Below, in pieces: positions 8,195-51,383 of a DNA stretch of 64,000 nt. The DNA is from a virus. The position numbers and the translations under genes were made by a program. Location of the stretch: positions 1 through 64,000 of the IMG/VR virus record IMGVR_UViG_3300027631_000002; one strand, written 5' to 3'. The number at the start of each line of letters is the position of its first letter. Position 1 is the first letter of the stretch. Below the pieces are notes generated by a model. The model was not told the origin of the DNA. It worked only from the letters and a program-made list of their open reading frames with translations, and did not search any database.

Positions 8195-8264
8195 AGGCGG
8201 AAAAAGGAATCGAACCTCTGTGTAGGAACTTGCGGTCCCTCGCCTAACACTCAGCCATTCCGCC
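8195..8264 (-). tRNA. tRNA-Cys(GCA)
   Basis: Acceptor GGCGGAA/TTCCGCC, U73, anticodon arm AGGGA-CCGCAAG-TTCCT, T-loop TTCGATT. Has C33 instead of U33, and no encoded CCA. Confidence 0.85.
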
Positions 8265-8306
8265 ATTTGTTCTACAAAGATAGAACTTTTTTTATATAAT
8301 AAAAAA

Positions 8307-8942
8307 TTATTTTGTTGTTAAAATCAATCTATCTATTCCAAGTGCGAAACCTATCCCAACATCATAGGAACCACCACCACAGATTTGTTTTTGTGCTCCT
8401 AACTCTGGACAAGCAATTTCAAATCCTTTACCACCAGTGTAGTAGTCAAGTCCTCTTGTTGCGTCTAAGTTTACTTCGTAGTTATCAGTTGCTAACTCAA
8501 TTAGTTTAGTTGCAATCTCTAACATTTCATCAGTCATATCTTCAGTTGGATTGATTACTTCAACACCAAATTGCGTGAATTCACGGTAACGCCCAGCTTG
8601 TGGTTTTTCTCCACGAAAACATTGTCCAATGTAAAATAACTTAACGTTCTTTGTCATTTTAAATGTTTCGTTAGCGAGCTGTTGTACGACTGCGGTATAT
8701 TCTGGTGCCAAACAGATGTCTCTGTTACCTCTATCGGTAAAAGTGTACATCATGTTGTTATTTTCTTCACCTACTTTACTAGCAAATGTTTCAGTTAGTT
8801 GAATAACTGGGATCATCATTTCTTGATAACCATAGGATTCCATAATATCAATCATTTGATTTAGTAATCTTCTTTTGTTTCTAGCTGTTTCACCAAAAAC
8901 TATCCTCGTACCTTTGTACGTTTTACTTGTCTTTATCTCCAT
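8307..8942 (-). CDS. hisS: minimal histidyl-tRNA synthetase-like protein (catalytic core only, 211 aa)
   Basis: KGTR, LAPEYT, FRGEKPQAGRYREFTQFGVE, RGLDYYTG, GGGSY and IGFALGIDRL. Ends right after motif 3. The track start at 8981 lies inside the terminator, so 8942 is used. Confidence 0.85.
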   Translation of the reverse strand: MEIKTSKTYKGTRIVFGETARNKRRLLNQMIDIMESYGYQEMMIPVIQLTETFASKVGEENNNMMYTFTDRGNRDICLAPEYTAVVQQLANETFKMTKNVKLFYIGQCFRGEKPQAGRYREFTQFGVEVINPTEDMTDEMLEIATKLIELATDNYEVNLDATRGLDYYTGGKGFEIACPELGAQKQICGGGSYDVGIGFALGIDRLILTTK

Positions 8943-8964
8943 TTTAATAATATATTTTTTTAAT

Positions 8965-8995
8965 AAAAAAGCCCAGATCATTATAATCTGGGCTT
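8965..8995 (-). terminator. attenuator terminator upstream of mini-hisS
   Basis: mRNA AAGCCCAGAT-TATAATG-ATCTGGGCTTTTTT. Confidence 0.85.
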
Positions 8996-9027
8996 ATGTT
9001 TAAATTAGCAATTTTTAAGACATATAC

Positions 9028-9084
9028 TTACGACCCAGATTTCTCTGTGTGATGATGTAGTTTATATGTTGTTTTCATTTTCAT
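9028..9084 (-). promoter_or_regulatory. histidine attenuator leader peptide MKMKTTYKLHHHTEKSGS*
   Basis: Three consecutive His codons. The leader 3' end AAATCTGGGT is complementary to the terminator 5' arm. TATATTTG (-7) box at 9089-9096. Confidence 0.8.
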
Positions 9085-9151
9085 ACTGCAAATATATAAC
9101 TTTTTATTTAATTATACAAGTAAAGTTTAATTTTTCATCAAATATTATTGT

Positions 9152-9856
9152 TTACTCTTTAATTTTATTATCAATTGCCCAATCATTATTAGCAGGGAAA
9201 TATAAATGTGTAGAAATCCCATCAAAGTATATACTACCACTTCCATCTGAAAATGGTGATTGAGAACTCCAAGTTCCACCTATTATAGATGCTATATGAT
9301 TACCTGTACTATCAATAAATGTAGTATTTGATGATGTTACTGATAATAGTAAGTTTGTTTCTGTGTAGCTCATTGGATTTAATGGTGTTGTTGATGGTGT
9401 AAAATTACCATTATATTTTGCAATACCTTTCAAAAAGTGGAAGTTAGTTAAGTAACCATTAAATTTTTGACCAACACCACCACCAATTTGTAAATCACTT
9501 GTATTATCTTCTATTAGTCTGTTATTATTAGCATTAATAACTCTTGTACCATTATAATAAAGTTGTAAAACATTGTTATTTCTAACTATTGCAAAGTGTA
9601 CCCAAGTATTATATAAATTTGATATAGTAGAGAATATATAATCTGGTGAGCCATCTGTCCAAACTGCTAGTACATTTCCTTGAAATTCCTCACTAAATCC
9701 AATTTGATCAGTTGGATTATCACCAACATTAAATAATCTATCAAAACTACCAGCACTTGCTGTCATTTTTTGCCACCATTCTACTGTAAAGTTATTTTTA
9801 GGTGTAGGTGGTGTACCACCACCAGTAAAACTACTTCCTATTATTGATTGTATCAT
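9152..9856 (-). CDS. LamG/concanavalin A-like domain protein, probably virion/tail-associated
   Basis: FTVEWW, WVHFAIVRNNNVLQLYYNG and FNGYLTNFH. Shares N-terminus MIQSIIG with 10797..11909. Confidence 0.8.
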   Translation of the reverse strand: MIQSIIGSSFTGGGTPPTPKNNFTVEWWQKMTASAGSFDRLFNVGDNPTDQIGFSEEFQGNVLAVWTDGSPDYIFSTISNLYNTWVHFAIVRNNNVLQLYYNGTRVINANNNRLIEDNTSDLQIGGGVGQKFNGYLTNFHFLKGIAKYNGNFTPSTTPLNPMSYTETNLLLSVTSSNTTFIDSTGNHIASIIGGTWSSQSPFSDGSGSIYFDGISTHLYFPANNDWAIDNKIKE

Positions 9857-10490
9857 AGTTTATTTTTTTCATAAAATATTTTTCAATTCTTTTACTTAAT
9901 CTAACATTAGGATCTTCATCAGTTCTTCCTAATACACTATATGGTGTTAAAAAACCCATACTTAGAAAAATTCTTCTTGATGTAAAAGGTTCTGTCCAAT
10001 GTTTATATAAAGAAGCTTCAAAACAATACATATCTGTAGCTTTTACTTCAAAAACATCTTTATCTATATAAAAGTTATAATCTTCTGCTAAAACACTTAT
10101 ATTACATTTATAGTTTATATATCCTTCTTTAGATACATCATAATGTGCATTTATTTTTCCGCCTTTATTCATATCAACAACTTGTACAAATGAATTATCT
10201 GTTGGTAAATTCATTTCATTGGCAACTCTTTTAATAATTGATTTTAAAAAGTCAGGTAATTCTTCTTTATGAATTTCTGATGCAGATTGAAATGTTGTAA
10301 TATAATTTGTTAGTGGTGTATCTGATATATCAAACATATGAGATTTACCTTTTAATTCTTTAGAAAGTTCAGTAATATAATAATTACTTTCTCTACTTTT
10401 GAAATCAATAGTATTAACCCATTCAGTTATTAATTTTACTTCTTCATTTGAAATAAAATTTCTTTTTATTTTATAATTTTTAGATTCCAT
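9831..10490 (-). CDS. 2OG-Fe(II) oxygenase
   Basis: HYD...H (AHYDV, LYKHW) and RR motif in the last strand. Confidence 0.75.
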   Translation of the reverse strand: MESKNYKIKRNFISNEEVKLITEWVNTIDFKSRESNYYITELSKELKGKSHMFDISDTPLTNYITTFQSASEIHKEELPDFLKSIIKRVANEMNLPTDNSFVQVVDMNKGGKINAHYDVSKEGYINYKCNISVLAEDYNFYIDKDVFEVKATDMYCFEASLYKHWTEPFTSRRIFLSMGFLTPYSVLGRTDEDPNVRLSKRIEKYFMKKINYDTINNRK

Positions 10491-10780
10491 TTTGATAAAA
10501 ATTCTTTTGGTGATCCTTCTTCTATTACTGAATGTTCTTGAACAGATAATAACTTATCATAACCTGTTTGGTCAACATTAATAAAACAAAACCAATGTGT
10601 TGCAGGTAATTGACCTGTCTCAGAAACTGGAATACTTAAATGTCCTTTAGGTAATGTTTCTTTATATGCTTGTAAACCTGGATGTAATATAACAGGTTTA
10701 TTGGTAGTTACTAATACACCTTTACTATTTTCTCTTGCTAACTCTACTTTAGAGTCTTCACATAATATACATAACTTCAT
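10466..10780 (-). CDS. hypothetical protein
   Basis: 104-aa ORF within the structural cluster. Confidence 0.6.
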   Translation of the reverse strand: MKLCILCEDSKVELARENSKGVLVTTNKPVILHPGLQAYKETLPKGHLSIPVSETGQLPATHWFCFINVDQTGYDKLLSVQEHSVIEEGSPKEFLSKWNLKIIK

Positions 10781-10796
10781 ATTATTTTACTTATTT

Positions 10797-11909
10797 TTAT
10801 TTATTTATAATATTTGTATATAAATATTCACCTCCTTCAACAGCTAAAGCAACAGAATATAAGTAATCTGCTTCACCAGTTTCTACATTTAATTCTCCAA
10901 TACATTGAAGTGAATTATTTGTTTCTTTATCATTCACAATTAAATTACAATATATTCTACCATCAACATTTATAGCACTAATAATAAACCAAACTTTTGA
11001 CATACTAATACCTGGAATATCATTTATAAAAACTTCATTTGTTAATTCAGTATTAAATACTCCAGCATTAATATCATACCTACCTATAGATGACAGAAAA
11101 CCACCTGTTCCAGTACATACACCCCATGTATAACCATTATATTCAAATAAACTTGTTGGATAATAATCATCATCAACACTATGTACAGATAATAATGTTG
11201 TGGTTTGATTAAATGTATCTACCATATAAGTTTTGGGTAGAATAAAGTTATTTTGGTTATCTAAAAATAAAAATCTATCTAAACAAACAAATTGATTATT
11301 ACCTAAGTAATGCATGGATGTTGGTGATGATGATGCGTTAACACTATCTACTGTTATGGTAATACTTTGTGATGATGTACCACTAAAATTATCAGCACTT
11401 ATAGTAATTGTATCTCCAGATTTATATAAATCACCTGTATTATTAGTAGAAACACTTGAGACCGTTCCTCCACTAACAATAATATCAAAAATTGCAGCAT
11501 AACCAGAACTTGTTCCACTTCCTGTTAATCCAATATAAGTACCCGATTGCAAACCTGCAAGGCTAGTAAAACTGAAATCATCAATAGCACCTCCAATACT
11601 TCCTAATATATCAATATCTAAATATGTAAGATTTCCAAAATCATCCATCTTACCAAATAAAATTGAATTTGTTGGACCCGAAATATCTCTACTTGAAAAA
11701 TATTTGAATCCATCATTTGGATTATTTGCAAATACTGTAGGTCCATAAAAAATACCATTTGTTGTAAATGCAGTAACTGTATTATTGGATTGTAAGTTAA
11801 ATAACATATAATCATCTGGTGGTGTAGTTGGTGTACTTTTTAATCCAAATATTAAAAAGTCTGTTGTAAATCCTCCTTTAAAACTTGTTCCTATTATTGA
11901 TTGTATCAT
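10797..11909 (-). CDS. putative virion structural/tail-associated protein
   Basis: Gly/Ser/Thr-rich module (GGTVSSV...GDLYKSGDTITI) similar to repeats in 11989..16269. TAATATATA box at 11914-11922. Confidence 0.55.
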   Translation of the reverse strand: MIQSIIGTSFKGGFTTDFLIFGLKSTPTTPPDDYMLFNLQSNNTVTAFTTNGIFYGPTVFANNPNDGFKYFSSRDISGPTNSILFGKMDDFGNLTYLDIDILGSIGGAIDDFSFTSLAGLQSGTYIGLTGSGTSSGYAAIFDIIVSGGTVSSVSTNNTGDLYKSGDTITISADNFSGTSSQSITITVDSVNASSSPTSMHYLGNNQFVCLDRFLFLDNQNNFILPKTYMVDTFNQTTTLLSVHSVDDDYYPTSLFEYNGYTWGVCTGTGGFLSSIGRYDINAGVFNTELTNEVFINDIPGISMSKVWFIISAINVDGRIYCNLIVNDKETNNSLQCIGELNVETGEADYLYSVALAVEGGEYLYTNIINK

Positions 11910-11988
11910 ATATTATATATTATTTTTAATAAAGAAGCAATTGTTTAAATTAGACAATTGCTTCTTATTTTATTACATTTTCTTATTT

Positions 11989-16269: not shown

Positions 16270-16362
16270 ATTTTTATAATAATTTTTTTTATAGAGTATA
16301 TATTTTTTATTAAAAATGTATTTTTGTTATAAAATAAAAAAAGAGAGCTAAAGCTCTCTTTT

Positions 16363-20399: not shown

Positions 20400-21235
20400 A
20401 AGGGGCTGAGATTATGCCATCTTGTAAGAATCTTTTGAAGAATTATTGTTTCTCTTCGTATCCACAATCTTTTGGATTGTAATTCTCATTGAGGATTAGT
20501 TAGACTAATCACTTCTTGAGGCTTCAACTACTCTCTTATTACTCAACTCTCTTCAAACTTGCGGTCTGATTAAGGGTTCGACCCCTTAGAGGTTTTTGGC
20601 AAGAATACGTCTCAACTTGCGGTCTTGACGTGCACTGGACGGCCCAGTACTATGTACTCAACTTTCGTTGAAGCCTGACAGACACTTTTGCTTTTTAGTT
20701 TTTAAATTTTACTTCAAATGTAAATTGCTTTAGTGTTGTGGATATGTCGAAGAAGTGGTCTGTCGTAAGCTTCGTTATCTTTTGAACAACGAAATACTAA
20801 ACTCCTTCGTGAAGCCTCCCAGCCTCCATATTTTAAGACAACTTCAAACTAACACCTTGGTAGATGTTTAGTAGGGATAGTAGCAGCACCACCTGTTCTC
20901 TACCATTACCTTTCGGTTTTAAGTCACCTCTTATATTGGAAGTCGCAATCATATGGTTGGAGCCATACTTCTCGCAAAAATCCTATGAGTTATTCTTATT
21001 GGTGTTCCCACCTCAACCGGACAATCCACATTGCCGCGGTTACTCAACCACTTTCTCTACAGTGTTACCCTCGATAGTAAAGGTTGCGTAATATCTCACT
21101 TGTGTACTCGAGCTCTTACAAGCCGCAGAACCATTTAACGTTGATTCCACTTTATCCTAAGTTTCCCTAGGTTATTTAACGACGATACACCGCCGATTAT
21201 CATTTTACTAGCCACCGAAGTGATTAGTTGGATAA
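20400..21235 (-). ncRNA. large structured ncRNA, GOLLD-like (~830 nt)
   Basis: GC-elevated, no convincing ORF, many minus-strand hairpins with GNRA/UUCG loops (CCTAGG-GAAA-CTTAGG, TCAAC-GAAA-GTTGA, ACC-GAAA-GGT, CAC-TTCG-GTG, two GCAA loops). Adjacent to the tRNA cluster. Confidence 0.6.
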
Positions 21236-21241
21236 TACAAT

Positions 21242-21256
21242 ATTTTCAAAGAACGT
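21242..21256 (-). promoter_or_regulatory. rrn-type boxA-like antitermination element
   Basis: ACGTTCTTTGAAAAT between the promoter (TATCTTTG at 21281-21288) and the large ncRNA. Confidence 0.55.
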
Positions 21257-21340
21257 AATCTTTTTGTTTTTATTATAGTACAAAGATAATATAAGTTGTT
21301 TAAACTACCAAAATTATTTTTACTTTTTTTAAAAAAAATT

Positions 21341-21441
21341 AAGACCCTATTACAGGCAGTTGATTACCCCATTCTATTTGGACTTGGATGTTATAGCTTT
21401 CACTAATAAATTAGCTAGAATGCGTCAGCTCATTGAGTCTT
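21341..21441 (-). ncRNA. unassigned ~100-nt structured RNA
   Basis: Closing helix AAGACTC/GGGTCTT, internal CATTCT/AGAATG and TAGCT/AGCTA pairings. Confidence 0.4.
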
Positions 21442-21449
21442 AATTTTAG

Positions 21450-21546
21450 TAGTCTGTACGGGATTCGAACCCGTGTGACCAGCCGCCCCGAAGGACCGCT
21501 ACCCGTCCTGACCCACCGAAGTGAGTATCCGCTAGACGAACAGACC
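21450..21546 (-). ncRNA. tRNA-Glu-scaffold RNA 1 (anticodon arm capped by UUCG, D-loop hairpin insertion)
   Basis: GGTCTGT/ACAGACT-A acceptor, ACGGG-TTCGAAT-CCCGT T-arm, D-loop insert ACTCAC-TTCG-GTGGGT, anticodon arm GTCC-TTCG-GGGC. Confidence 0.85.
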
Positions 21547-21577
21547 GATAAGTAGTTGCCTACCTAGGTTTTATTTG

Positions 21578-21666
21578 TAGTCTGTACGGGATTCGAACCC
21601 GCGTTACCTCCTTCGAAGGGAGACGTCCTGACCCACCGAGGTGAGTATCCACTAGACGAACAGACC
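21578..21666 (-). tRNA. tRNA-Glu-scaffold RNA 2 with TCG (Arg) anticodon and D-loop hairpin insertion
   Basis: Same acceptor, near-identical T-arm. Anticodon arm TCTCC-CTTCGAA-GGAGG. Insert ACTCAC-CTCG-GTGGGT. Confidence 0.8.
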
Positions 21667-21749
21667 GAAGTGTCGTGTTTAATTACACTAAAGATGAATA
21701 CTTAAAAGTACCAACTTGTCAACATTACAGAAATGACATTTACACTTAG

Positions 21750-21822
21750 TAGCGGGAGAAGGACTCGAACCTCCGACCTTATGGTTATGAGCCACACGAG
21801 CTGCCAACTGCTCTATCCCGCG
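21750..21822 (-). tRNA. tRNA-Met(CAT), initiator-like
   Basis: C1:T72 mismatch, A11:U24, loop CTCATAA. Only two of the three initiator G-C pairs (TGTGG/CCATA). Confidence 0.88.
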
Positions 21823-21835
21823 ATATATTTTGTTG

Positions 21836-21951
21836 TAGTCTGTACGGGATTCGAACCCGCGTTCCTCTCTCGTGACTAAGAGAATGTCCTGTTTACCTTA
21901 CTTTAATGCCGAAGCTTTTTGTTCAGTAAACGTCCACTAGACGAACAGACC
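21836..21951 (-). ncRNA. tRNA-Glu-scaffold RNA 3 (43-nt D-loop insertion, enlarged anticodon loop containing GTC)
   Basis: Same acceptor, near-identical T-arm. Insert GTTTAC...GC-TTCG-GC...GTAAAC. Arm TTCTC-TTAGTCACGA-GAGAG. Confidence 0.82.
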
Positions 21952-21995
21952 GAAGAGTGTCGGAATTAAAACGCGCATCACTCTTATTTGTTTGA

Positions 21996-22027
21996 CAAAG
22001 ATACGGTGACTTTTTTAATCTACCAAA
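21996..22027 (-). promoter_or_regulatory. Bacteroidota sigma-A-type promoter (repeated unit)
   Basis: TTTG-N20-TATCTTTG. Near-identical copies at 22294, 22611, 22690, 22818 and 34685, and a looser one at 21281. Most share TTTGGTAGATTA. Confidence 0.85.
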
Positions 22028-22123
22028 TCTTTTTTAATTTATTTTGTACCCCAGCCAGGATTTTCACCTGTATCTCTGTTTTAGTTAAAACAATGACTTT
22101 ATTCATCCAATGGAGTGTATTTG

Positions 22124-22224
22124 TAGTCTGTAAGGGATTCGAACCCATGTTTTCTCCTTCAATGCCATTACGCAGTAATCGGGAAATGTCCTATCACCGA
22201 AGTGAACCGCTAGACGAACAGACC
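22124..22224 (-). ncRNA. tRNA-Glu-scaffold RNA 4 (24-nt anticodon loop with internal hairpin)
   Basis: Same acceptor. Insert TCAC-TTCG-GTGA. Arm TTTCC-[CGATTACTGCGTAATGGCATTGAA]-GGAGA. Confidence 0.82.
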
Positions 22225-22344
22225 GAAAGAGTTGTGCTATCGTACACCACTAGGCCGGAATTTCACACGACACCTACTCTTATTTTATTTTGACAAAGAT
22301 ACGACGACTTTTTTAATCTAACAAATCTTTTTTCATTTATTTTG

Positions 22345-22483
22345 ACCGCATTGAGGGAGTCGAACCCAAATGTAAATACATTTACTAGTATTTATATTTA
22401 TAATAACAAGATTAGAACCTATCCCGACTTCATACTAGAATATTAAATTATTATCTAGTTTACTAACTACTTGTTCAACGCGA
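22345..22483 (-). pseudogene. degenerate tRNA-like element with long AT-rich interior
   Basis: Acceptor TCGCGTT/AATGCGG and GGG-TTCGACT-CCC T-arm core. D and anticodon arms are not canonical. Confidence 0.45.
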
Positions 22484-22488
22484 ATGTG

Positions 22489-22593
22489 TAGTCTGTAAGG
22501 GATTCGAACCCATGTTTACAATCTCTCCATATACCAGGATATTTGAGATTGTCGTCCTATCACCAAAGTGATATACCGCTAGACGAACAGACC
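22489..22593 (-). ncRNA. tRNA-Glu-scaffold RNA 5 (8-bp anticodon stem, 19-nt loop)
   Basis: Same acceptor. Insert ATCAC-TTTG-GTGAT. Arm ACAATCTC-[19 nt]-GAGATTGT. Confidence 0.82.
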
Positions 22594-22892
22594 ATTTTAT
22601 TTTTGTTTGACAAAGATAAGGACAATTTTTTAATCTACCAAATCTTTTTTTTCAATCTTTTTGAGAGTTTGTTTCTCTCATTTGTTTTACAAAGATACGG
22701 TGACTTTTTTAATCTACCAAATCTTTTTTAATTTTTTTTATTTTCTTCCCCAGATCATATATCCGATTAAAATCCCAACTATTATACCTGAACCCATATT
22801 ATTTCTTTATTAGAGTACAAAGATACAAAAGTTTTCTAATCTACCAAATTTTTTTAGAAAAAAAAATGATAAAATAATTTAATATATACATT

Positions 22893-25093: not shown

Positions 25094-26500
25094 TTATTTT
25101 TTGATCATATGACTACATATTTCATCCATCCAACCGAGTTTCTGTGCAACCTGTGCTCCACTACATCCTTTAATAAAATCATTTCTAGTATTATATTTAA
25201 GTGCCTCTTCTTGACATCTTTCTTTTGTCCAATACCCAACTGGTCTTTTTTTAACTATCATGTGTGAACATATTTCATCCATCCAACCATTTCTACCAGC
25301 TACTTGTCCAGAAGGAGATCCTTTAATATAACTACTTCTGGTATTATATTTAAGTGCTTCTTCTCTACATCTTTCTTTTGTCCAATATCCTCTAGGTTTT
25401 ATATCTCGTATTTCCATATGACTACATATTTCATCTATCCAGCCATTTCTTTGTGCCGCTGCTGCCGCACCACCAGCACTTGTTTTAAAATCATTTAAGT
25501 TATTGTATTTAAGTGCTTCTTCTCTACATCTTTCTTTTGTCCAAGAACCGGCAGGATTAGTTTGTTTATCCATATGTGCACATATTTCATCCAGCCAACC
25601 ATTTTTATATGCTGAACTTTGTGCACCCCTAGATCCTAATTTGAATTTATAACGTTTATCATATTTTAGTGCTTCTTCTCTACATCTTTCTTTAGTCCAA
25701 TAGAAATCTCTTATAACCTTATCATAATCTTTACATATTTCATCGATCCATCCATATTTATATGCTGCAGCTATTGCACCTGGTGAACCTTTAGTAAAAT
25801 CAATTTTATTTTTATATTTAAGAGCTTCTTCTTTACATTTCTCTTTAGTCCATATAAGATAGTTACCACCAACATCTCCACCATTAGAAGTATTTAAAAC
25901 CTTATAGTTTCTATCTCTATATTCTTTAATAAGATTAATTTCCATCTTCACAGCATCATCAAGAGGTATAGGTTCTGGTGTTAATAATTTAGAAGTTGGT
26001 ATAAGTCCTGTTAATTTGATATAATCATATACTGAGGATTTTCTACTATTTTCAAGGGTATGTTGTATATTTCTACGTTTAAAGTCAGATGTTAAACCTA
26101 TATATACTGCATTATCTGGAAATGTATATATATATACAAATCTCTTTACACGATTACCTAAATAGCTCATATGGTCACATACCTCTTTTAACCAACCTCT
26201 TATTCTTGCTATACTATATGCAGTAGGTTCATTATTTCCAAATTCACTTCTACTATTATATTTAAGAGCAATTTCTTGACATCTTTCTTTTGTCCAATAT
26301 CCTTTAAAGTTTCTAAGTGGAATCATATGACTACACACTTCATCTAACCAGCCGTTTAAACGTGATGAATTATATGCTCTCTCCGAGAGTTTACGAAATT
26401 CACTTCTACTAGAATATTTTAAAGCTTCTTCTTGACATTTTTCTTTTGTCCAAATTTTTTTACCTTCGTTTATCTCATTAAAATTTTTTAAATGCTTCAT
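25094..26500 (-). CDS. GIY-YIG endonuclease embedded in seven ~50-aa WTKExCxEEALKY repeats
   Basis: FVYIY...VYIGLT...R...H core with 2 repeats before and 5 after. N-terminus MKHLKNFNEINE. Confidence 0.75.
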   Translation of the reverse strand: MKHLKNFNEINEGKKIWTKEKCQEEALKYSSRSEFRKLSERAYNSSRLNGWLDEVCSHMIPLRNFKGYWTKERCQEIALKYNSRSEFGNNEPTAYSIARIRGWLKEVCDHMSYLGNRVKRFVYIYTFPDNAVYIGLTSDFKRRNIQHTLENSRKSSVYDYIKLTGLIPTSKLLTPEPIPLDDAVKMEINLIKEYRDRNYKVLNTSNGGDVGGNYLIWTKEKCKEEALKYKNKIDFTKGSPGAIAAAYKYGWIDEICKDYDKVIRDFYWTKERCREEALKYDKRYKFKLGSRGAQSSAYKNGWLDEICAHMDKQTNPAGSWTKERCREEALKYNNLNDFKTSAGGAAAAAQRNGWIDEICSHMEIRDIKPRGYWTKERCREEALKYNTRSSYIKGSPSGQVAGRNGWMDEICSHMIVKKRPVGYWTKERCQEEALKYNTRNDFIKGCSGAQVAQKLGWMDEICSHMIKK

Positions 26501-26550: not shown

Positions 26551-26559
26551 TCTTAAATA

Positions 26560-26754
26560 TAAGTAAGTGAGCTTAGCCGCGATTTTGTTCTATCCCATCA
26601 TTTATCTTTGCATCAACCCGTTCTCAAAGGGAAACCGACACCCTCGAATTGTTTGACTTGCTACTTCCTTAGTACAATCGACATTAGTCTCCTAAGTTAG
26701 GTTTTGTAGTCGCGAACTTCCTCTGTTTCCAGCGATAGGTTCTCTGCTTACTTA
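26560..26754 (-). ncRNA. rnpB: minimal RNase P RNA (~195 nt)
   Basis: P1 AAGTAAG/CTTACTT. P4 GAGGAAGTTCGCGA pairs with ACAAAATCGCGGCTAA, with the bulged U. TAGCAAGTCAAACAA and AGATAAATGA conserved-region motifs. P5 CTAC/GTAG encloses only ~40 nt. Confidence 0.85.
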
Positions 26755-26773
26755 TTGTAAAAGTACAAGATAG

Positions 26774-35497: not shown

Positions 35498-36757
35498 TTA
35501 GTTTAATTTTGTTCGGATTCCAGGCATGTAAATCTCAATCAATTGTATCAATTCTTCTTTACATTCCGTAGTCAATGATTTATTTTTATTTTGGTTCATC
35601 AAAATCATAAATGAACTTACTACTTTATTAAATTTAAAAGCATCTGTAAAGTCAAATATAGTTTTCTTAAATGATTCTATATCAATAGTTTCTTCACCTG
35701 TTTTATCCAACCACGTTTTCATTCTATTTATAAATCTTCTAATTCCAATTATATTTTCATCAGACCAAGAACCACCATCAAAGTAGTGACCAATAAACAT
35801 CAAGTAAAATCTAATTTCATCTGGATCATAACCATCTAAACTAACTACATTTCCTTTAGACTTAGACATTTTTTCTCCTTCACTCAATATCATTCCTTGG
35901 TGTACCAATTTAGTAATTGGTTCTTCAAAGTCAATAAAGCCAATATCATACAAAAACATTGTAATAAATCTAATATAAATCAAGTGCATACAAGCATGTT
36001 CTGATCCACCAACATACAAATCAACTGGTTTTGGTTTGATACCTTTCATCAAGCAGTATATAATAGTGTAGATAGAACTATCTACGAACGTATCCATTGT
36101 ATCAGTTTCTCCTTCAATAGGAATAGGACAACCCCAACTTCTTTGTCTTGATACACACCAGTCGTGTTGGTTTTCCAACCAATTTCTTTGTGACTTTATT
36201 GTAGATTCTGGAAAGTCAATCTTATCCAAACCGGCAATCAATCTATCTTTATAGTCGGTAATTTTGAAATACCATTGATTCAATGTTTTCTTCTCTACTT
36301 CTGTAGAACATCTTTCACATTTACCTTCTTTTACTTGTTCTCTAGCCAATACAGTTTCACAACTATTACAGAAGTCAACTTCACCATCTTTTTTATAAGC
36401 CAAATCTTTATCATACAATTGTTTAAACAACCATTGTGTGTACTCAATATAGTTGGGATCTGAAGTAATCAACATTTCCTCATATTGAGTATTCATGTTA
36501 TCCATCTGTATTCTAAAATTTTCTATATTCTCGTAGGTAACTTCTCTTGGATCTCTACCTACTTTCTTAGCATAGTTTTCCGCTGGCAATCCAAATGAAT
36601 CATATCCAAATGGTTGAAAAACCGTTTCGCCTTTGTATCTCAAGTATCTGCAGTAGCTATCCATAATCGCATAGTTATACCAATGTCCACAGTGCAAACC
36701 ACTACCTGAAGGATATGGAAACATCACAGTTACATATTTATAGTTGTTATCATTCAT
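35498..36757 (-). CDS. leuS: minimal leucyl-tRNA synthetase (419 aa, no CP1 editing domain)
   Basis: MFPYPSGSGLHCGH, GYDSFGLPAEN, Zn knuckle, QRNWL directly followed by HDWCVSRQRSWG, DTMDTFVDSS, YVGGSEHACMHL and KMSKSKGN. Confidence 0.92.
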   Translation of the reverse strand: MNDNNYKYVTVMFPYPSGSGLHCGHWYNYAIMDSYCRYLRYKGETVFQPFGYDSFGLPAENYAKKVGRDPREVTYENIENFRIQMDNMNTQYEEMLITSDPNYIEYTQWLFKQLYDKDLAYKKDGEVDFCNSCETVLAREQVKEGKCERCSTEVEKKTLNQWYFKITDYKDRLIAGLDKIDFPESTIKSQRNWLENQHDWCVSRQRSWGCPIPIEGETDTMDTFVDSSIYTIIYCLMKGIKPKPVDLYVGGSEHACMHLIYIRFITMFLYDIGFIDFEEPITKLVHQGMILSEGEKMSKSKGNVVSLDGYDPDEIRFYLMFIGHYFDGGSWSDENIIGIRRFINRMKTWLDKTGEETIDIESFKKTIFDFTDAFKFNKVVSSFMILMNQNKNKSLTTECKEELIQLIEIYMPGIRTKLN

Positions 36758-40043: not shown

Positions 40044-40898
40044 TTATACTACATCTTGCATTAATTCAAATGCTTCTTTTTCTATTTCTTTTTGAAGTAA
40101 CTCCATAGCTCTTGCTAATCTTGTTAAACCAATTCCTGCACCAAATCTTGGAAAGAAGTCAAATTTTAAGAAATCTTCTAATTCTTTTTCTACTCTTTCT
40201 TTTCCAAATAATTCAAATAGTTTTTCAGAATATCCACCATTTTCTATTGTATAAAACATTTTTCTCATAGAGTCAACTTCACAACTTCTTTCTGCCGCAC
40301 CTATTGTTTCTTGTCCATATAATATTACATCAACTTTGTTGAATAAATCATCTTGTTGATTTTTCATATTCCAAAATGGATTAGTTCTTAATGGAAAGTT
40401 TTGAAGAGAAACGCAATGACTTACTTCATTCCACATTTTACTTTCATGTTCATTTTCTAAAATTGATACGTCTCCATATTCTTTACAAGTTTTATTGTAA
40501 TCCATTTCAACAGGTGATCCAAATCCTAAATACTCAAGAAGTTCTTTTTCTAATAGAATTAAATCTTTATATTTACCTTTTGATTCAAACTCAAACATTG
40601 GAAAGATTAGTTCATGTCTTCCAGGAATTGGATTTTTTTCTGCTCTGTAGCTTGTAGATACACAGAAAACTCCTTCCCAAGTAGGATTTTTTAGAAGTTC
40701 ATACTCGAGCCACATTTGCCCTGTTTGTGGTAAAGGCCATATCTCACCATTGTATTCAAAGGTTGATACTGAGTGTGGGTTTTCACAAGCTGCTAAAATT
40801 GATAGTCTAGATTGTGTTGGTACTTCTACGAAGTTTTTTTCCAAAAAAAATTCTCTTAGTTTCTGAACTAGAGAATTGTACATTAAAGTGTTTGTCAT
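40044..40898 (-). CDS. class IIb (Asn/Asp/Lys) aaRS-like catalytic domain without the OB-fold anticodon domain
   Basis: LREFF..KNFVEVPT motif 1, LPQTGQMWLE, SYRAE...RH...F.MFEFE motif 2, GQETIGAAER and FGAGIGLTRL motif 3. Confidence 0.8.
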   Translation of the reverse strand: MTNTLMYNSLVQKLREFFLEKNFVEVPTQSRLSILAACENPHSVSTFEYNGEIWPLPQTGQMWLEYELLKNPTWEGVFCVSTSYRAEKNPIPGRHELIFPMFEFESKGKYKDLILLEKELLEYLGFGSPVEMDYNKTCKEYGDVSILENEHESKMWNEVSHCVSLQNFPLRTNPFWNMKNQQDDLFNKVDVILYGQETIGAAERSCEVDSMRKMFYTIENGGYSEKLFELFGKERVEKELEDFLKFDFFPRFGAGIGLTRLARAMELLQKEIEKEAFELMQDVV

Positions 40899-42276: not shown

Positions 42277-42297
42277 TATTTATATATTAAGAGAGTA

Positions 42298-43796: not shown

Positions 43797-43825
43797 AAAT
43801 ATTTTATGAAAAAAAATTAAAAAGT

Positions 43826-44371: not shown

Positions 44372-44374
44372 AAT

Positions 44375-45772
44375 TTAGTTACATTCATAACAATCAACTC
44401 TACCACTACCTCCACATTCATCACATTCTGATGTTCCATCACCATCACATCTTCCACATTCTTCTAGACCACGACCTCCACATTCTTTACATTCTACTGT
44501 ACATTCTCCGTCACATTTATCACAAGTTGATCTACCATCACCATGACAATCATCACATGATTTTTTCCCATTTCCTTCACAGTCAGTGCATTCTTCACCT
44601 TCTTCATCAGTTCCGTCTCCATCACAAGTTTCACACTCTACTTCGCCATAACCATCACAATCACGACACTCTACTTCACCATCTCCATCACATTTTGGAC
44701 AGTTCTCTGTTCCATCACCTTCACATTCAGAACATTCTTGTTCTCCTTCTCCATCACATCTGTAACATTGTCTTTCTCCTGCATCACATTCTTCACATTC
44801 AAAACTACCTCTTCCACCACAATTATCACAAGAACCATCTCCACCATCGGTACTAGTTAGTTCTGCATCGTAGTTTGAGTTATAGTTTGTACTAAGTTGT
44901 CCTTTGTCTCTTAGAAGATATTTCAGTGTATCCATATAAGGATAATCATCAAAATTTGATTGTTCTAATGTAACATAAACCCAGCTATCTTCTCTTTCAA
45001 GTTGTTCTCCATTAAACATAATAGGATCACCTGTGTGGAATGTTTGATTCATTTTATAATAGAATTCGTTTTCTTTTGCAAAGTCTATAAATAATTCAGT
45101 ATCAGAATGGTTTATAATATAAACTCGGTCCATAAATTTTCTTCCTTTATCATCTAACCAAAGAAGTGCTCTAGCTGTAATTTTATCTGGATTCTCTACA
45201 GATCTTAATATAATAAGTGATACTCTATCCGGATTATCGGAATAGATTGATAAGAATTGTTGACATTTTGGATATCTCATGCAGGAAGAACCTAGTGTTC
45301 CTAATTCTTTATCGTAATTTTCTACGTGATACCATTTTTTAATATCGTTACCATTAACTATTTCAAATCTTGTAAAAGATTCTTTCTCTATTAAGATAGT
45401 TGCTTTATATTTACTTACAAAATCTTCAAGATCTTTTGGTTTAACTTCGATGCCTGCTTTGGTTAGAATTGCTCTTACAAATCTACCAACATTCATGTCA
45501 GATTTTTTAATTGTTTTAGGATCTTCTACTTTTTTTGCTTTATCATCTGGTGTAAAGAATACTTTATCTTCTTTATCTACATCATATGAGATATAGTTAT
45601 AGTTAGTATCTACCTCTTCACCGTCTAATTTTAATAATTCAGATGCAACTGGAGATTTTATTTTTTTCAATAAGTCATAAAACTTATCATCTAGTACAAT
45701 TGTTGCTTCTAATAAAAGCATCATGTCTTTTTCTAGTAAAAATTCGTCGTATTTTGATATTTTATTATTCAT
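44375..45772 (-). CDS. SCM/DRVY-family phage protein with 14 CxxC (DnaJ-like CxxCxGxG) C-terminal array
   Basis: LGSSCMRY, ARALLW, FMDRVY and YPYMDTLKY. Paralogue of 55738 and 57360. Start at MNNKISKYDEFLLE. Confidence 0.8.
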   Translation of the reverse strand: MNNKISKYDEFLLEKDMMLLLEATIVLDDKFYDLLKKIKSPVASELLKLDGEEVDTNYNYISYDVDKEDKVFFTPDDKAKKVEDPKTIKKSDMNVGRFVRAILTKAGIEVKPKDLEDFVSKYKATILIEKESFTRFEIVNGNDIKKWYHVENYDKELGTLGSSCMRYPKCQQFLSIYSDNPDRVSLIILRSVENPDKITARALLWLDDKGRKFMDRVYIINHSDTELFIDFAKENEFYYKMNQTFHTGDPIMFNGEQLEREDSWVYVTLEQSNFDDYPYMDTLKYLLRDKGQLSTNYNSNYDAELTSTDGGDGSCDNCGGRGSFECEECDAGERQCYRCDGEGEQECSECEGDGTENCPKCDGDGEVECRDCDGYGEVECETCDGDGTDEEGEECTDCEGNGKKSCDDCHGDGRSTCDKCDGECTVECKECGGRGLEECGRCDGDGTSECDECGGSGRVDCYECN

Positions 45773-45830
45773 AATGTATATATTATTTTTTTTTATGTGA
45801 AAAGTCAATTATTTTTTTAATATATAGTTT

Positions 45831-47845: not shown

Positions 47846-47879
47846 AACTTTTATATAATTTTATTATATATATAATAAT

Positions 47880-48026
47880 ATGGAAAAGAAAAATATATTT
47901 CTTTTATTAGATGATGAAATTGTTACACGTTACAAAGAACATCTAGATAAGGTAGGATATGATAAAAATAAGTTATTTGAAAGAATAATTATTGATTTTT
48001 TGAAGAAAAACACAATAAAGTCTTAA
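47880..48026 (+). CDS. small ribbon-helix-helix-like DNA-binding protein (48 aa, not in ORF track)
   Basis: MEKKNIFLLLDDEIVTRYKEHLDKVGYDKNKLFERIIIDFLKKNTIKS*. Confidence 0.5.
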   Translation: MEKKNIFLLLDDEIVTRYKEHLDKVGYDKNKLFERIIIDFLKKNTIKS

Positions 48027-48077
48027 AAAGGTACTTTTAGGTAATTTTTATTTATATATAGCATAAGGAAAATAATT

Positions 48078-48287
48078 ATGAGGTACTTGAAAGAATTTAA
48101 CGAAAATAAGGATGTATTCATGGAATACCTACTTGAGTTTACTGAGAACGGTAAGCCAGAGGAGTTGTATAGTAGTAGATTAACTAAATTACTTAGATTT
48201 GTGAGAATGGAAGGCCTTAAAGATTATACTATAAAAGGAATAACTCGTTCAGCAGAACATAAGATAATTTTAAAAATAGGAAAATGA
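48078..48287 (+). CDS. small protein with capsid-targeting-like N-terminus
   Basis: MRYLKEFNEN. Confidence 0.65.
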   Translation: MRYLKEFNENKDVFMEYLLEFTENGKPEELYSSRLTKLLRFVRMEGLKDYTIKGITRSAEHKIILKIGK

Positions 48288-48312
48288 AGAACCCACTCGA
48301 AAGTGGGTTTTT

Positions 48313-49281
48313 TTAGTTCATATACTCTGTGAAAAATTGTTCAAAGATAGCTTGCATTACTGGAACACATATTGAATTTCCAGCTAGTGCTACGTGTTGT
48401 TTAGTTGTTAAACTTGTAGTTAGTAAATTATCAATATCCTCATCTTTAACTCCCATAAAACGATAACCTTCTCTTGCAGTTAAAGTTCTAATTTTCTTAT
48501 CATCTAACATAATTTGTGGTGAACCTGATGTAGTTAAACAAGGTGAACAACCATCTATTGAGTAGATTCTTCTTGTTTGATCATATTTTATATCACTTCT
48601 TCGAGCAATCATTCTACAAACAGAGTTTAGTTTAGGCGTATTTATTTCATAAGGTGGTGTAATAAATAAACTATTATCCGCAGTTGTATCAATAAATGGT
48701 TTCATTGGAACTCTAGTTTTTTTATGATTGTGAACACTCATCATTTTATTAGAAACATCTAAAGAAGATTCTCCTAATACTGAAAACATGAAAACTCTTT
48801 CTCTATTTTGAGGACAGCCGAAGTCGGCACCATTAAGTACCATCCAAGCTGAACCATAACCTAAAGAGTTAAGTTTTTCAATGTAATCATTAAATTTTTT
48901 GATGTGATTTTTTGAAACTAAATTTTTCACATTTTCCATTAGTAGATACTTTGGTTTATTATGTTCTACGATTCTTTCTACTTCGTATAATAAACCACTT
49001 CGTGTTCCTTTTTCAATACCACGTTGTACACCAGAGATAGATATATCTTGACAGGGAAATGAGTATGTTAAAAAATCACAATGTGGGAAAGTTTTTTCAT
49101 CAACTTTAGATACATCACCTAAATTACCTTGTTCGGTAGTGTGTAGTGAGTCGTACGCTTCGTTTGCTGATTTAAGAATGTCACAATTTGCGACGTTACG
49201 GTATTTAATACCACTATACTTTAGTGCTAGTTCTTGAGTGCCATACCCTGAGAATAGGCTTATAATTTTTAATTCTTCCAT
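48313..49281 (-). CDS. dcm: DNA (cytosine-5)-methyltransferase
   Basis: SLFSGYG, SFPCQDIS, MENV, PQNRERVF and AGNSI. Confidence 0.95.
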   Translation of the reverse strand: MEELKIISLFSGYGTQELALKYSGIKYRNVANCDILKSANEAYDSLHTTEQGNLGDVSKVDEKTFPHCDFLTYSFPCQDISISGVQRGIEKGTRSGLLYEVERIVEHNKPKYLLMENVKNLVSKNHIKKFNDYIEKLNSLGYGSAWMVLNGADFGCPQNRERVFMFSVLGESSLDVSNKMMSVHNHKKTRVPMKPFIDTTADNSLFITPPYEINTPKLNSVCRMIARRSDIKYDQTRRIYSIDGCSPCLTTSGSPQIMLDDKKIRTLTAREGYRFMGVKDEDIDNLLTTSLTTKQHVALAGNSICVPVMQAIFEQFFTEYMN

Positions 49282-49311
49282 ATTAGATTATATGTGAGAA
49301 TTAAAAAATGT

Positions 49312-49785
49312 TTAGTCTAAGTGTCTAATATCTTTATGTGAAGATTTTTCGTTACCGTTGTGAGACCACAATCTTGCAAATGGTGTAGTAAAGTAATCAT
49401 TATAACATAAAGTATCATCAATATGAAGGTCTATATTATTTTCTTTACAATATTCTGCTTTTGTTGAATCCCATAAAACATCATCGAATTTTTTCTGAAT
49501 AGTTCCATCCGGAAATTCAATCTCACCTAAGATTTCTGCGGTTTTTAATAGGTGATCATAAACTGAGAATTTATGAGTATAGTTTATACCGTGTAGTTGT
49601 TTTTCTAATTTATCTGTCCATTCCCCTCCAGTGATTACATGCACTTCACCACCATTTTTTATAACAGAGTCTGCTAAAAATACAAAGAATTCTGGAATTG
49701 CATCGATTACTCCGTGTATATCGATACCAATTTTGAATTTTGCTGTTGAACTTTCGTTCACTATACTACTAAATTTTGTTATCAT
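49312..49785 (-). CDS. HAD-like phosphatase/nucleotidase
   Basis: IGIDIHGVID, VITGG and LHIDD. Confidence 0.65.
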   Translation of the reverse strand: MITKFSSIVNESSTAKFKIGIDIHGVIDAIPEFFVFLADSVIKNGGEVHVITGGEWTDKLEKQLHGINYTHKFSVYDHLLKTAEILGEIEFPDGTIQKKFDDVLWDSTKAEYCKENNIDLHIDDTLCYNDYFTTPFARLWSHNGNEKSSHKDIRHLD

Positions 49786-49795
49786 AATTTATATA

Positions 49796-50188
49796 TTAAA
49801 TTATTTCTTCAATTTTCTTATCTCTCATTTCTGCAGTAGATAAAATTTCTTTTACAAAGATATGAAAATTACTCGTAAAAGTAATCAAGTTGAATGAAAT
49901 ATTTGTACTCATTCCGGCACCACTTGATTGACTATCTAAAGTTGGATTTGTCTTTGTAATACTTCCCCAATAGTTAAATCCAAATGATGGTTCATAAATA
50001 GCACTATTACTACTTCTTTCATTCCAAAATTCTATTACAAATGTTTTGCTTTCTGTTTCGTTACTGTCATATTCATATAAAATTGTAAATTGATCATTGT
50101 CATAAAATATATTTAAAATCTTACTGTAAGCAGGTAAATGAAAGCTTGCTTGATTATAACTGGTGTGTGTTGATTGTGTTGTTATCAT
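49796..50188 (-). CDS. hypothetical protein with C-terminal RDKKI motif
   Basis: Ends EMRDKKIEEII. Confidence 0.7.
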   Translation of the reverse strand: MITTQSTHTSYNQASFHLPAYSKILNIFYDNDQFTILYEYDSNETESKTFVIEFWNERSSNSAIYEPSFGFNYWGSITKTNPTLDSQSSGAGMSTNISFNLITFTSNFHIFVKEILSTAEMRDKKIEEII

Positions 50189-50550
50189 ATTCCTAATTTA
50201 CTTAAAATTTTATCTCTATAGAAACTTATATCATCAACAATAAAAAGGTTTGAATCTGTAATAATTAGATCATCAATAATCTCAATAATCTTTGATGTTT
50301 TTTGTAGTGACATAATTCCTACATTTTGATTACTTGTAACTATTTGATCTATTTCTAATAAATCTACATTAGCTGGTTCTTGATTTACAATACCTTTACA
50401 TCTTTGTATAGAATACTTATCTATAAATTCTTTATTATTTAATATTTTTTTATAGAATTTATTTTCAGTATCTACCATAACATAGGAAACCTCGGTAGAT
50501 TTCCCACCGAGGTGATTATGAATTAAATCTCCTACCTTAATTAGTTTCAT
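50185..50550 (-). CDS. hypothetical protein with C-terminal RD motif
   Basis: Ends FYRDKILSKLGI. Confidence 0.65.
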   Translation of the reverse strand: MKLIKVGDLIHNHLGGKSTEVSYVMVDTENKFYKKILNNKEFIDKYSIQRCKGIVNQEPANVDLLEIDQIVTSNQNVGIMSLQKTSKIIEIIDDLIITDSNLFIVDDISFYRDKILSKLGI

Positions 50551-51383
50551 TATAGTATTTTAGTGCCTGGTTTGGCATTTACCACAAATACTGGTGTACC
50601 ATTTTCTAATTCACCTGGCATAATCATCGCGTGTGACTCAATCCCCATCATCTTAACAGGTTTTAAATTTGTTATGAACAAGAAAGAGTACCCTTCTAAT
50701 TTATCAACGTAGTTCTCACCTAAAGAAGGTTTAATGTTTGTTACAACAACTCTCGGTGTATCTTCACCAAAATCAACTTCTAACTTAATAAGTTTATCTG
50801 ATTTAGGTACATCTGTTACTGATATAATCTTACCTGTTTTAATTTCTAATTTAGATGAAGCATCTAAAAATTCCGAAAATTCTATTTTATCTTTCATGTT
50901 TAATATATTTATTGCTTTAATTTTACATTCTTCTTTTAGTCCTGGAATTCCTAATTTCCAAGGTTTTACTGGTTCTCCTGTTGAACAATTTACAAAATAA
51001 TCTTGTTGTTCGTCCAGGAAATCTTGTATATCATCAAATATAACATACTGGGTTACTTCTGGGTGTCTATCTAACCAAAGTTTAATTTCATGACCTCTTT
51101 TTACTTGGTCATAATAAACTATATTGGTTGATTCACATACATCTACACAATCTGGTGTTACATCAATAATTTCACCTGGTAGTTGACGTTCTTTCCATAG
51201 ATCTAACATTCTTTGAATACCTTTATCTTTCCAAGTGGAAGAGATAACGATTTTCGCACCTGTTTTTTCAATAATTTCCTTTAAGTTCTGGACGTATTCA
51301 TCCCTGAAGATATGACCGAATTGGTCTTTATCATCATAATCTACGTTTAGAACGCCGTCTATGTCAAGAAATATTGTTTTCAT
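50550..51383 (-). CDS. fusion of an RNA-repair-type HAD domain and a Trbp111/MetRS-C-like tRNA-binding OB domain
   Basis: IFLDIDGVLN, IVISSTW, RGHEIK.WL and YVIFDD, followed by GKIISV..VPKSDKLIKLEVDFG and NLKPVKMMGIESHAMI. Confidence 0.85.
   Translation of the reverse strand: MKTIFLDIDGVLNVDYDDKDQFGHIFRDEYVQNLKEIIEKTGAKIVISSTWKDKGIQRMLDLWKERQLPGEIIDVTPDCVDVCESTNIVYYDQVKRGHEIKLWLDRHPEVTQYVIFDDIQDFLDEQQDYFVNCSTGEPVKPWKLGIPGLKEECKIKAINILNMKDKIEFSEFLDASSKLEIKTGKIISVTDVPKSDKLIKLEVDFGEDTPRVVVTNIKPSLGENYVDKLEGYSFLFITNLKPVKMMGIESHAMIMPGELENGTPVFVVNAKPGTKIL

Follow-up and report, generated by a model that had tools for sequence, protein, structure and literature searches.

tRNA-centred genes of a huge-phage genome: core-only synthetases, a minimal RNase P-like RNA and tRNA-Glu-shaped RNAs beside GOLLD

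What does a phage do with four aminoacyl-tRNA synthetases cut down to their catalytic cores, an RNase P-like RNA without its specificity domain, and five RNAs that have the body of a tRNA and differing anticodon arms, all encoded within 43 kb of DNA? The question is raised by the virus record IMGVR_UViG_3300027631_000002 (179,626 bp), of which we analysed the first 64 kb (G+C 28.9%), referred to here as the window. A first-pass annotation had answered it with a single system, in which the phage charges RNAs by acceptor-stem identity alone, either to keep translation going when host defences cleave anticodons or to supply aminoacyl-RNA for non-ribosomal uses or decoys. One part of that interpretation stands: the reductions are real, conserved in length and under selection, and a set of RNA repair genes is present. 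The other part, the joint occurrence of the components as one system, does not, and on balance we favour reading the 43-kb span as several separately inherited tRNA-centred modules over reading it as one machine.

The argument for separate modules comes from the relatives. We searched for the parts in 50 large related contigs together with LR745206.1 and LR756501.1, and carried out association tests on the 27 contigs with a completeness of 90% or more. Among these 27 the HisRS core occurs in 15, the LeuRS core and the class II Asp/Asn-type core in 6 each, the GluRS core in 4, the mini RNase P RNA in 5, and RNAs of the tRNA-Glu-shaped class, which have a hairpin inserted in the D loop (D-insert RNAs), in 7, and the parts are found in nearly all combinations. 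The tests detected no positive association of one core with another or of a core with the D-insert RNAs (all p ≥ 0.27); the sole significant pair among these, the HisRS core with the class II core, is negative (p = 0.003). D-insert RNAs without a truncated GluRS or LeuRS are present in three complete phages (G002, G003 and G005), and four contigs (G009, G011, G015 and G018) have the LeuRS core together with a full-length GluRS in place of the GluRS core. Only two lineages were found with the full set, that of the window (G006) and LR745206.1; in LR745206.1 the parts lie at about 23, 345, 405, 421 and 502 kb and are therefore spread over some 480 kb. The first-pass annotation had itself named co-occurrence of the truncated synthetases, the mini RNase P RNA and the scaffold RNAs in relatives as the test of its proposal, and this co-occurrence largely fails; the parts assort independently and look like separate modules.

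CheckV estimates the record to be about 30% complete, and the absence of a domain is accordingly judged here per gene and not for the whole phage. The class II core of the record has a 96%-identical counterpart on a contig of 611,835 bp, and the closest relative in the annotated collection is LR745206.1, an uncultured phage of 634,780 bp whose LeuRS-like protein is 70.8% identical. Promoter-like motifs of the form TTTG-N17-21-TAnnTTTG are in excess (13 observed against 4.3 expected), a protein with a type IX secretion system (T9SS) sorting domain is encoded, and phage genomes larger than 634 kb have been predicted to replicate in Bacteroidetes (PMC7162821); these three observations point to a Bacteroidota host for what appears to be part of a huge phage of about 0.6 Mb. 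All items of the toolkit described by the first-pass annotation were found on the minus strand, marked (-) after the coordinates below.

The five tRNA-like RNAs reported by the first-pass annotation proved real, with one acceptor stem, a shared TTCGAAT T loop and differing anticodon arms, although ARAGORN detects none of the five and only no. 1 passes the Rfam tRNA model RF00005 (37.8 bits), no. 4 falling just under it (27.8 bits vs 29). In all five the acceptor stem is GGUCUGU/ACAGACU followed by A73, the variable loop has 4 nt, and the D arm is that of tRNA-Glu (GUCU-AGYGG...A-GGAC), with a hairpin of 14-43 nt inserted after G18G19. They differ in the anticodon arm. RNA no. 1 (22489-22593 (-); 68.4 bits with model R1; fold z-score -3.0) has an 8-bp helix with a 19-nt loop in place of the anticodon arm; in no. 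2 (22124-22224 (-); 75.9 bits) the arm is enlarged and irregular; no. 3 (21836-21951 (-); 65.4 bits) combines a 43-nt D-loop insert with an 8-nt loop on the anticodon stem; and in no. 5 (21450-21546 (-); 73.5 bits; D-loop hairpin) the arm has become a long GC-rich hairpin with a UUCG loop. Only no. 4 (21578-21666 (-); 88.2 bits; D-loop hairpin) has a regular 5-bp anticodon stem and 7-nt loop (CUUCGAA), in which UCG would be the anticodon. An ordinary tRNA-Met(CAT) gene lies within the array (21749-21822 (-); ARAGORN; Rfam 58.7 bits).

Ordinary tRNA-Glu(UUC) genes of 72-73 nt in other viral contigs have the same acceptor stem and T arm, and we therefore take the five RNAs to derive from a phage tRNA-Glu. 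When IMG/VR was scanned with a pattern, 17 contigs proved to have D-insert versions; their acceptor stems differ in sequence and are always fully paired. Over 34 distinct sequences, 98% of the cells in the acceptor and T helices are paired and 10 of the 12 pairs show changes on both sides, a level of covariation reached by none of 500 shuffles. Since the orthologues in close relatives retain each paralogue's own anticodon arm, with compensating changes, the arms are under selection and not drifting.

Some further features of these RNAs and their surroundings may be recorded here. A G1-U72 wobble (alignment columns 1 and 173) is present in 31 of the 34 distinct tRNA-Glu-type sequences, ordinary and D-insert alike. 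Two weaker tRNA-like modules with paired ends and a T-arm-like hairpin follow no. 1 and no. 2 (22344-22484 and 22046-22121 (-), fold z-scores -1.9 and -1.3, respectively). An extended promoter-like motif, TTTGGTAGATTAAAAA...TATCTTTG, stands in front of RNA genes in seven copies at 21281-22848 and 34685-34715 (-), which suggests one regulatory class for RNA genes. Behind the copy at 34685-34715 sits a 59-nt RNA (34598-34656 (-)) composed of an acceptor stem and T arm; it scores 27 bits with the tRNA-like domain of tmRNA, and four close relatives (L011-L014) conserve it. No CCA-adding enzyme was found in the record. An identity with Y RNAs and Ro was considered and rejected, there being no TROVE (Ro) gene in the record and no YrlA match at E values up to 1.

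Directly downstream of the five tRNA-shaped RNAs lies a GOLLD RNA (20403-21275 (-)), which is absent from the first-pass annotation. Its 3' domain (20403-20809) scores 322.7 bits against RF02032 (gathering score 150; model positions 1-416); the 5' part is predicted to extend up to a promoter motif at 21281-21312, and a stem and T-run terminator follow 20403. In LR745206.1, identical 95-nt D-insert copies (420096-420190 and 421291-421385) flank a GOLLD 3' domain (420875-421280), and a third copy comes after. The order tRNA-like RNA, GOLLD, tRNA-like RNA is shared by LR745206.1, G027 and G029, with a 10-nt gap after GOLLD; in G001, G004, G005 and G010 a D-insert copy lies 100-150 nt downstream of GOLLD, and upstream copies are seen in the window, G006, L007 and L008. 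Altogether a D-insert RNA adjoins GOLLD in 11 of about 15 independent records, from genomes of 130-635 kb. The tRNA-shaped RNAs are thus tied by position to GOLLD and not to any synthetase. Separately, we note that the flanking copies in LR745206.1 are direct repeats in which the loop on the anticodon stem is CUUUUCGG, of 8 nt or, if one more pair forms, of 6 nt, and that a UUUUC motif recurs in distant members of the D-insert family.

GOLLD is known to occur near tRNA islands and to carry tRNAs in its linker, and it has been seen by cryo-electron microscopy to form a nanocage (10.1101/2024.12.08.627333). The window resembles described GOLLD loci (RF02032; Weinberg et al. 2009) in having a bona fide 3' domain in a phage next to tRNA-type genes, a tRNA-Met included. 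It differs in that the neighbours are a tRNA-Glu-derived class with D-loop hairpins, which in relatives flank GOLLD on one or both sides; we found no description of such a class in the literature searched, the nanocage study included.

The claims that the HisRS, GluRS and Asn/Asp-like enzymes are without anticodon-binding domains, and that the LeuRS is without CP1 editing, were borne out. The HisRS core (8307-8981 (-)) is an open reading frame (ORF) of 224 aa, whose true start is possibly slightly downstream, scoring 168.6 bits with hisS (TIGR00442; cut-off 286.75) and 111.3 with hisZ (TIGR00443; cut-off 271.65). It retains class II motifs 1, 2 and 3 and RGLDYY, including the motif-2 loop, which in HisRS contacts the acceptor end, and is without both the insertion domain (chain residues ~150-250) and the C-terminal anticodon-binding domain; the HGTP anticodon-binding domain PF03129 was found neither in this gene nor elsewhere in the record. 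The corresponding frames in relatives are of 180-264 aa.

The GluRS core (29208-30044 (-); 278 aa) scores 204.3 bits with gltX_bact (TIGR00464; cut-off 289.95) and 119.8 with GluQRS (TIGR03838; cut-off 276.7). HLGT and KLSKR are retained, while about 75 aa of the acceptor-binding insert (chain residues ~100-177) and the entire anticodon-binding domain are missing, and PF19269 was not found. Its AlphaFold2 model (predicted local distance difference test score, pLDDT, 89) is nearer to bacterial GluRS (template-modelling score 0.77-0.80) than to YadB/GluQRS (0.56-0.63). The family comprises more than 120 clusters of 225-284 aa, and it coexists with full-length GluRS in LR745206.1 (a 498-aa GluRS-like frame) and in G027. 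The LeuRS core (35498-36757 (-); 419 aa), which scores 367.7 bits with leuS_bact (TIGR00396; cut-off 548.4), retains HCGH and KMSKS, ends soon after the KMSKS region, and is without the CP1 editing domain (PF08264 was not found) and most of the C-terminal tRNA-binding part. Its best match in the PDB is 3ZIU, a leucyl-tRNA synthetase of 637 aa that we take to be the naturally CP1-less enzyme of Mycoplasma mobile, with an alignment that stops near residue 482 of the 637; frames in relatives are of 421-504 aa.

The fourth core (40044-40898 (-); 284 aa; PF00152, 55.3 bits) is of a distant class II Asp/Asn type with no N-terminal OB anticodon-binding domain (PF01336 was not found). Its best equivalog scores, for AsnRS, AspRS and EpmA, are 34 vs 353, 30.2 vs 342.6 and 17.8 vs 286.9 bits, and its model (pLDDT 57) was too poor for a fold search. 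It falls into viral phrog_29758 (319.6 bits), and its family is very common among viruses: at least 597 stretches of viral contigs in IMG/VR encode it, many on small contigs, a protein search scored 8000 candidates, every one of which passes an E value of 0.001, the Atlas clusters that hold it are 75-100% viral, and identity among the relatives listed, many of them on otherwise unrelated viral contigs, is 72-79%.

None of the four cores reaches an NCBIfam equivalog cut-off, be it that of a true synthetase or of HisZ, GluQRS or EpmA, and no anticodon-binding Pfam domain was found across the whole 180-kb record, itself some 30% complete. The same short frames are kept in relatives on dozens of contigs at 39-96% identity, and the ratio of nonsynonymous to synonymous substitution rates (dN/dS) is 0.07-0.19 for pairs with estimable dS; all four cores are under purifying selection. 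Given the kept motifs for ATP and the amino acid, the conserved short frames and these ratios, the cores are not debris and would be working enzymes.

Two small features lie beside the HisRS core. A tRNA-Cys(GCA) gene (8194-8264 (-); ARAGORN; Rfam 45.3 bits) is just downstream, and upstream a short ORF, MKMKTTYKLHHHTEKSGS (9028-9084 (-)), is followed by a terminator-like hairpin; its His run is kept only in the nearest of 31 related loci, with one doubtful case, and was not used as evidence.

The first-pass annotation was likewise right that the RNase P RNA is without most of its specificity (S) domain. The RNA is about 197 nt long (26559-26755 (-)) and matches RNaseP_arch end to end with 18-26 bits; the roughly 117 model positions of the S domain (P7-P12) are replaced by 36 nt, and a single variable hairpin stands in its place in every homologue. 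Blocks that we read, by comparison with the E. coli sequence, as CR-I (GAGGAAGUUCG), CR-IV (AGAUAAAUGA) and CR-V (AGAACAAAAU..GGCUAA) are present. Of 51 predicted pairs, 33 show compensatory changes over 8 homologues, those of P1, P4 and P15 included, with 2-4 pair types at each P4 pair. At least 12 related records contain homologues of 195-250 nt; one scores 34.8 bits (E 7e-7) with the archaeal RNase P model, and another lies within an array of 12 tRNAs. The gathering score of 84 is not reached, either by the window RNA (18-26 bits) or by the homologue with 34.8 bits, and the window RNA stays far under the gathering scores of all Rfam RNase P models.

RnpA (PF00825, 46-51 bits vs 22.3, with the RNR motif) is encoded in G009, G010, G013, G021, G027 and LR745206.1 (for example at G009:C1:440379-440669, LR745206.1:76444-76752 and G027:C1:37476-37682), and three of these six records also have the mini RNase P RNA. 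In G010, RnpA is present with no match to R2, the 109-nt 3'-half model used to search for the RNA, which may miss divergent homologues. No RnpA was found in the present 180-kb record, of which about 30% completeness is estimated. From the covariation, the CR blocks, the homologues and the RnpA genes of relatives, we accept the RNA on comparative grounds as a minimal RNase P RNA representing a conserved family, short of formal membership of the Rfam clan CL00002. The idea that an RNase P without an S domain answers a D-loop hairpin that would block the tRNA elbow was rejected, the two co-occurring in 2 of 5 vs 5 of 22 contigs (p = 0.58). Immediately downstream of the RNA, a GIY-YIG protein (25094-26500 (-)) has about seven internal repeats of ~153 nt.

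The pair of PseT and RNA ligase genes and the HAD-Trbp111 fusion were also confirmed. The first gene of the pair (27260-28165 (-)) encodes a polynucleotide kinase-phosphatase (PNKP) with a kinase P-loop and a HAD phosphatase in one protein (HAD_PNKP, PF25109, 146.3 bits, and AAA_33; phrog_505, 281.8 bits); the second, about 320 nt away (28487-29131 (-)), encodes a 214-aa RNA ligase of the PF09414 nucleotidyltransferase type (97.9 bits; phrog_24030 'RNA ligase'). The fusion protein (50550-51383 (-)) joins a HAD phosphatase of the RNA-repair type, HAD_SAK_2 (92.7 bits), to a tRNA_bind domain (60.9 bits) whose matches in the PDB are Trbp111 and MetRS C-terminal domains. A stand-alone SpoT-type HD hydrolase resembling small alarmone hydrolases (32830-33420 (-)) matches HD_4 at 56.8 bits and spoT_relA at 64.1 bits over the hydrolase part. 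The PTH2-like hydrolase of the first-pass annotation is a marginal call: a 291-aa protein (33462-34337 (-)) passes the Pfam cut-off, but barely (PF01981, 24.1 bits vs 23) and only with its N-terminal 68 residues, which cover profile positions 3-76 of 115, and the NCBIfam score is 19.2 vs 82, the PDB match 2ZV3 has an E value of 0.06, and the protein belongs to phrog_14850, of unknown function. A 686-aa ORF at 30208-32268 encodes a ClpB-type ATPase and lies outside the tRNA set.

What these parts do we infer from their anatomy, conservation and distribution, which were observed. At the GOLLD locus, GOLLD is preceded by an array of promoter-driven RNAs descended from the phage's own tRNA-Glu, each with a hairpin after G18G19 of the D loop and with an anticodon arm that has diversified in the window lineage. 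tRNA-processing enzymes would mature them as stable tRNA-shaped RNAs, four of the five presumably unable to decode, and these may act together with GOLLD, as signals that set the ends for processing or as attached handles or cargo. The minimal RNase P RNA would most likely act with RnpA, encoded by the phage in some relatives and otherwise supplied by the host, to cut the 5' leaders of phage tRNA and tRNA-like precursors. PNKP, RNA ligase, the HAD-Trbp111 protein and the SpoT-type hydrolase would form a heal-and-seal counter-defence against host enzymes that damage tRNA, and the presence of the repair set fits the countering of anticodon cleavage that the first-pass annotation had in mind. The four core-only proteins are paralogues, each from a widespread phage family of its own. 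They very probably still use ATP to activate His, Glu, Leu and Asp or Asn; the His and Leu cores could plausibly pass the amino acid on to the 3' end of a tRNA-shaped RNA, and for the Glu core this is less plausible because its acceptor-binding insert has been lost. Acceptor-only charging by individual cores is possible. A step further would be a private pathway of huge Bacteroidota phages, in which D-insert RNAs that flank or accompany GOLLD are matured by an elbow-independent phage RNase P, made up of the catalytic-domain-only RNA and a phage RnpA, and glutamylated by the Glu core whatever their anticodon arm to furnish handles or cargo for the nanocage and not substrates for the ribosome; we consider it improbable.

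Several observations weigh against the reading of separate modules, and some of them speak for one co-evolved system that charges by the acceptor stem alone, whether for translation under anticodon attack, as decoys or to make non-ribosomal aminoacyl-RNA. The reduction of the four cores goes the same way in each, a striking coincidence if they were fully independent, and each reduction in the window removes a part that reads the anticodon, edits or reads the elbow. The panel of relatives was chosen for the presence of at least one part, which biases it against positive association, the tests ignore phylogeny, and many of the relative records are fragments. The whole set does occur together in the window lineage and LR745206.1, so that a functional link there is conceivable, and the window GOLLD has its own promoter and terminator, so that there the tRNA-like RNAs are neighbours and not flanks. 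The cores keep their catalytic motifs under selection, and the RNAs retain the D helix and 4-nt variable loop of tRNA-Glu, which in E. coli are identity elements for GluRS. A single system nevertheless seems to us unlikely. Its parts assort independently among near-complete relatives and are dispersed in LR745206.1, D-insert RNAs are found with neither truncated GluRS nor truncated LeuRS, and the class II core is scattered over at least 597 viral contig stretches, many on small contigs; moreover, the single acceptor stem and A73 common to all five RNAs would present one identity and not four, the Glu core has no acceptor-binding insert, and the Leu core has no C-terminal tRNA-binding domain. 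A narrower version confines the charging to the Glu core, which would glutamylate the tRNA-Glu-shaped RNAs whatever their anticodon arm, for a non-ribosomal or GOLLD-linked use. The RNAs do have the body of tRNA-Glu, the Glu core is a paralogue beside a full-length GluRS, as GluQRS is in bacteria, and core and RNAs are found together in the window lineage, LR745206.1, G025 and G027. Against this, the overlap in near-complete contigs is 2 of 4 vs 5 of 23 (p = 0.27), the RNAs occur without the core in G002, G003, G005, G010 and G029 and the core without the RNAs in G016 and G024, and it is the acceptor-binding insert that has been deleted; we hold this pairing, too, to be improbable.

A different possibility is that the cores charge no RNA at all, being amino-acid activators with other acceptors or regulatory roles, in the manner of HisZ, AsnA, GluQRS and EpmA, or modulators of host synthetases, for example by heterodimerising. 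We know of no natural synthetase paralogue without an anticodon-binding domain whose role is other than non-canonical, and it would be in keeping with such a role that no core reaches an equivalog cut-off, that the class II core is highly conserved over unrelated viral contigs, like a metabolic enzyme, and that the Glu core coexists with full-length GluRS. Yet the cores score much nearer to true synthetases than to HisZ, GluQRS or EpmA, the HisRS motif-2 loop is kept, and HisRS, GluRS and LeuRS truncated in the laboratory still aminoacylate, so that we regard non-charging cores as a serious though doubtful alternative. The truncated genes might also be decaying fragments, halves of split genes or artefacts of assembly, and with a record about 30% complete the missing domains could sit elsewhere. 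However, the frame lengths are conserved over dozens of contigs at 39-96% identity, complete relatives have the same short frames, and no anticodon-binding Pfam domain lies within the 180-kb record; the conserved frames and the dN/dS of 0.07-0.19 rule out a pseudogene or fragment reading of the cores, and we give this explanation as a whole hardly any credence.

The separate modules each have partial counterparts among known systems. In its length of ~200 nt, in keeping P1-P4, P15, CR-I, CR-IV and CR-V and in the essential absence of an S domain the RNase P RNA resembles the type T RNA of Thermoproteaceae (Pyrobaculum; modelled in PMC3579882) and a laboratory bacterial RNase P RNA consisting of the C domain only (PMC5839562). 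It differs in being phage-encoded and of bacterial flavour, with a bacterial-type RnpA in some relatives. Like the CP1-less 3ZIU, the Leu core keeps HIGH, KMSKS and a putative CxxC...CxxC zinc module, but it is shorter (419 vs 637 aa) and without most of the anticodon-binding and C-terminal tRNA-binding parts. GluQRS/YadB, HisZ, EpmA and AsnA show the same kind of truncation in paralogues kept beside full-length enzymes; the phage cores score or fold nearer to genuine synthetases, and YadB keeps the acceptor-binding insert whereas the phage Glu core does not.

The repair genes recall T4 PseT and RNA ligase, which mend damage done by anticodon nuclease, in that kinase-phosphatase and ligase genes are adjacent, the phage ligase being of the short PF09414 type and not T4 Rnl1. 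HAD_SAK_2 is shared with the Swiss-Army-Knife RNA repair HAD proteins, but here the HAD domain is fused to the tRNA-elbow-binding domain of Trbp111. As in YrlA and Y RNA-like RNAs, mascRNA, plant t-elements and engineered tRNA scaffolds, the acceptor, T arm and D stem of the tRNA-shaped RNAs are kept and other helices replace the anticodon arm, and like these they could be substrates for RNase P, RNase Z and CCA addition; the D-loop hairpin and the linkage to GOLLD set the phage RNAs apart from those classes.

In the literature searched we found nothing specific on phage-encoded RNase P RNA, D-loop-insert tRNAs or truncated phage synthetases. An S-domain-less phage RNase P RNA, with a phage RnpA in some relatives, is apparently undescribed and would be a natural bacterial-type counterpart of the minimal RNase P of Pyrobaculum. 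The class of tRNA-Glu-derived RNAs with D-loop hairpins beside or around GOLLD, apparently undescribed as well, offers a testable lead on the function and processing of the GOLLD nanocage, and the selected synthetase cores of huge phages, for which the same holds, would be natural analogues of laboratory minimal synthetases and bear on the minimum functional synthetase. The negative result on co-occurrence also matters, in that the single-system story ought to be spread only with biochemical evidence behind it.

A few repeats and hairpins of the record remain to be described. The region of PolB motif B (record ~159,630-159,680, beyond the window) is broken by a perfect 19-bp hairpin that contains an in-frame stop and precedes an A run; a derivation of the D-loop hairpins from the 48-nt hairpin that interrupts PolB was considered and dismissed, there being no sequence relation. 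The record opens with perfect 42-nt tandem repeats (window 1-210). Three paralogous genes (44375-45808, 55738-57291 and 57360-58787 (-)) contain many cysteine-rich repeats of 33 nt (11 aa), and one of them has a weak match to a BSD2/DnaJ-type zinc finger.

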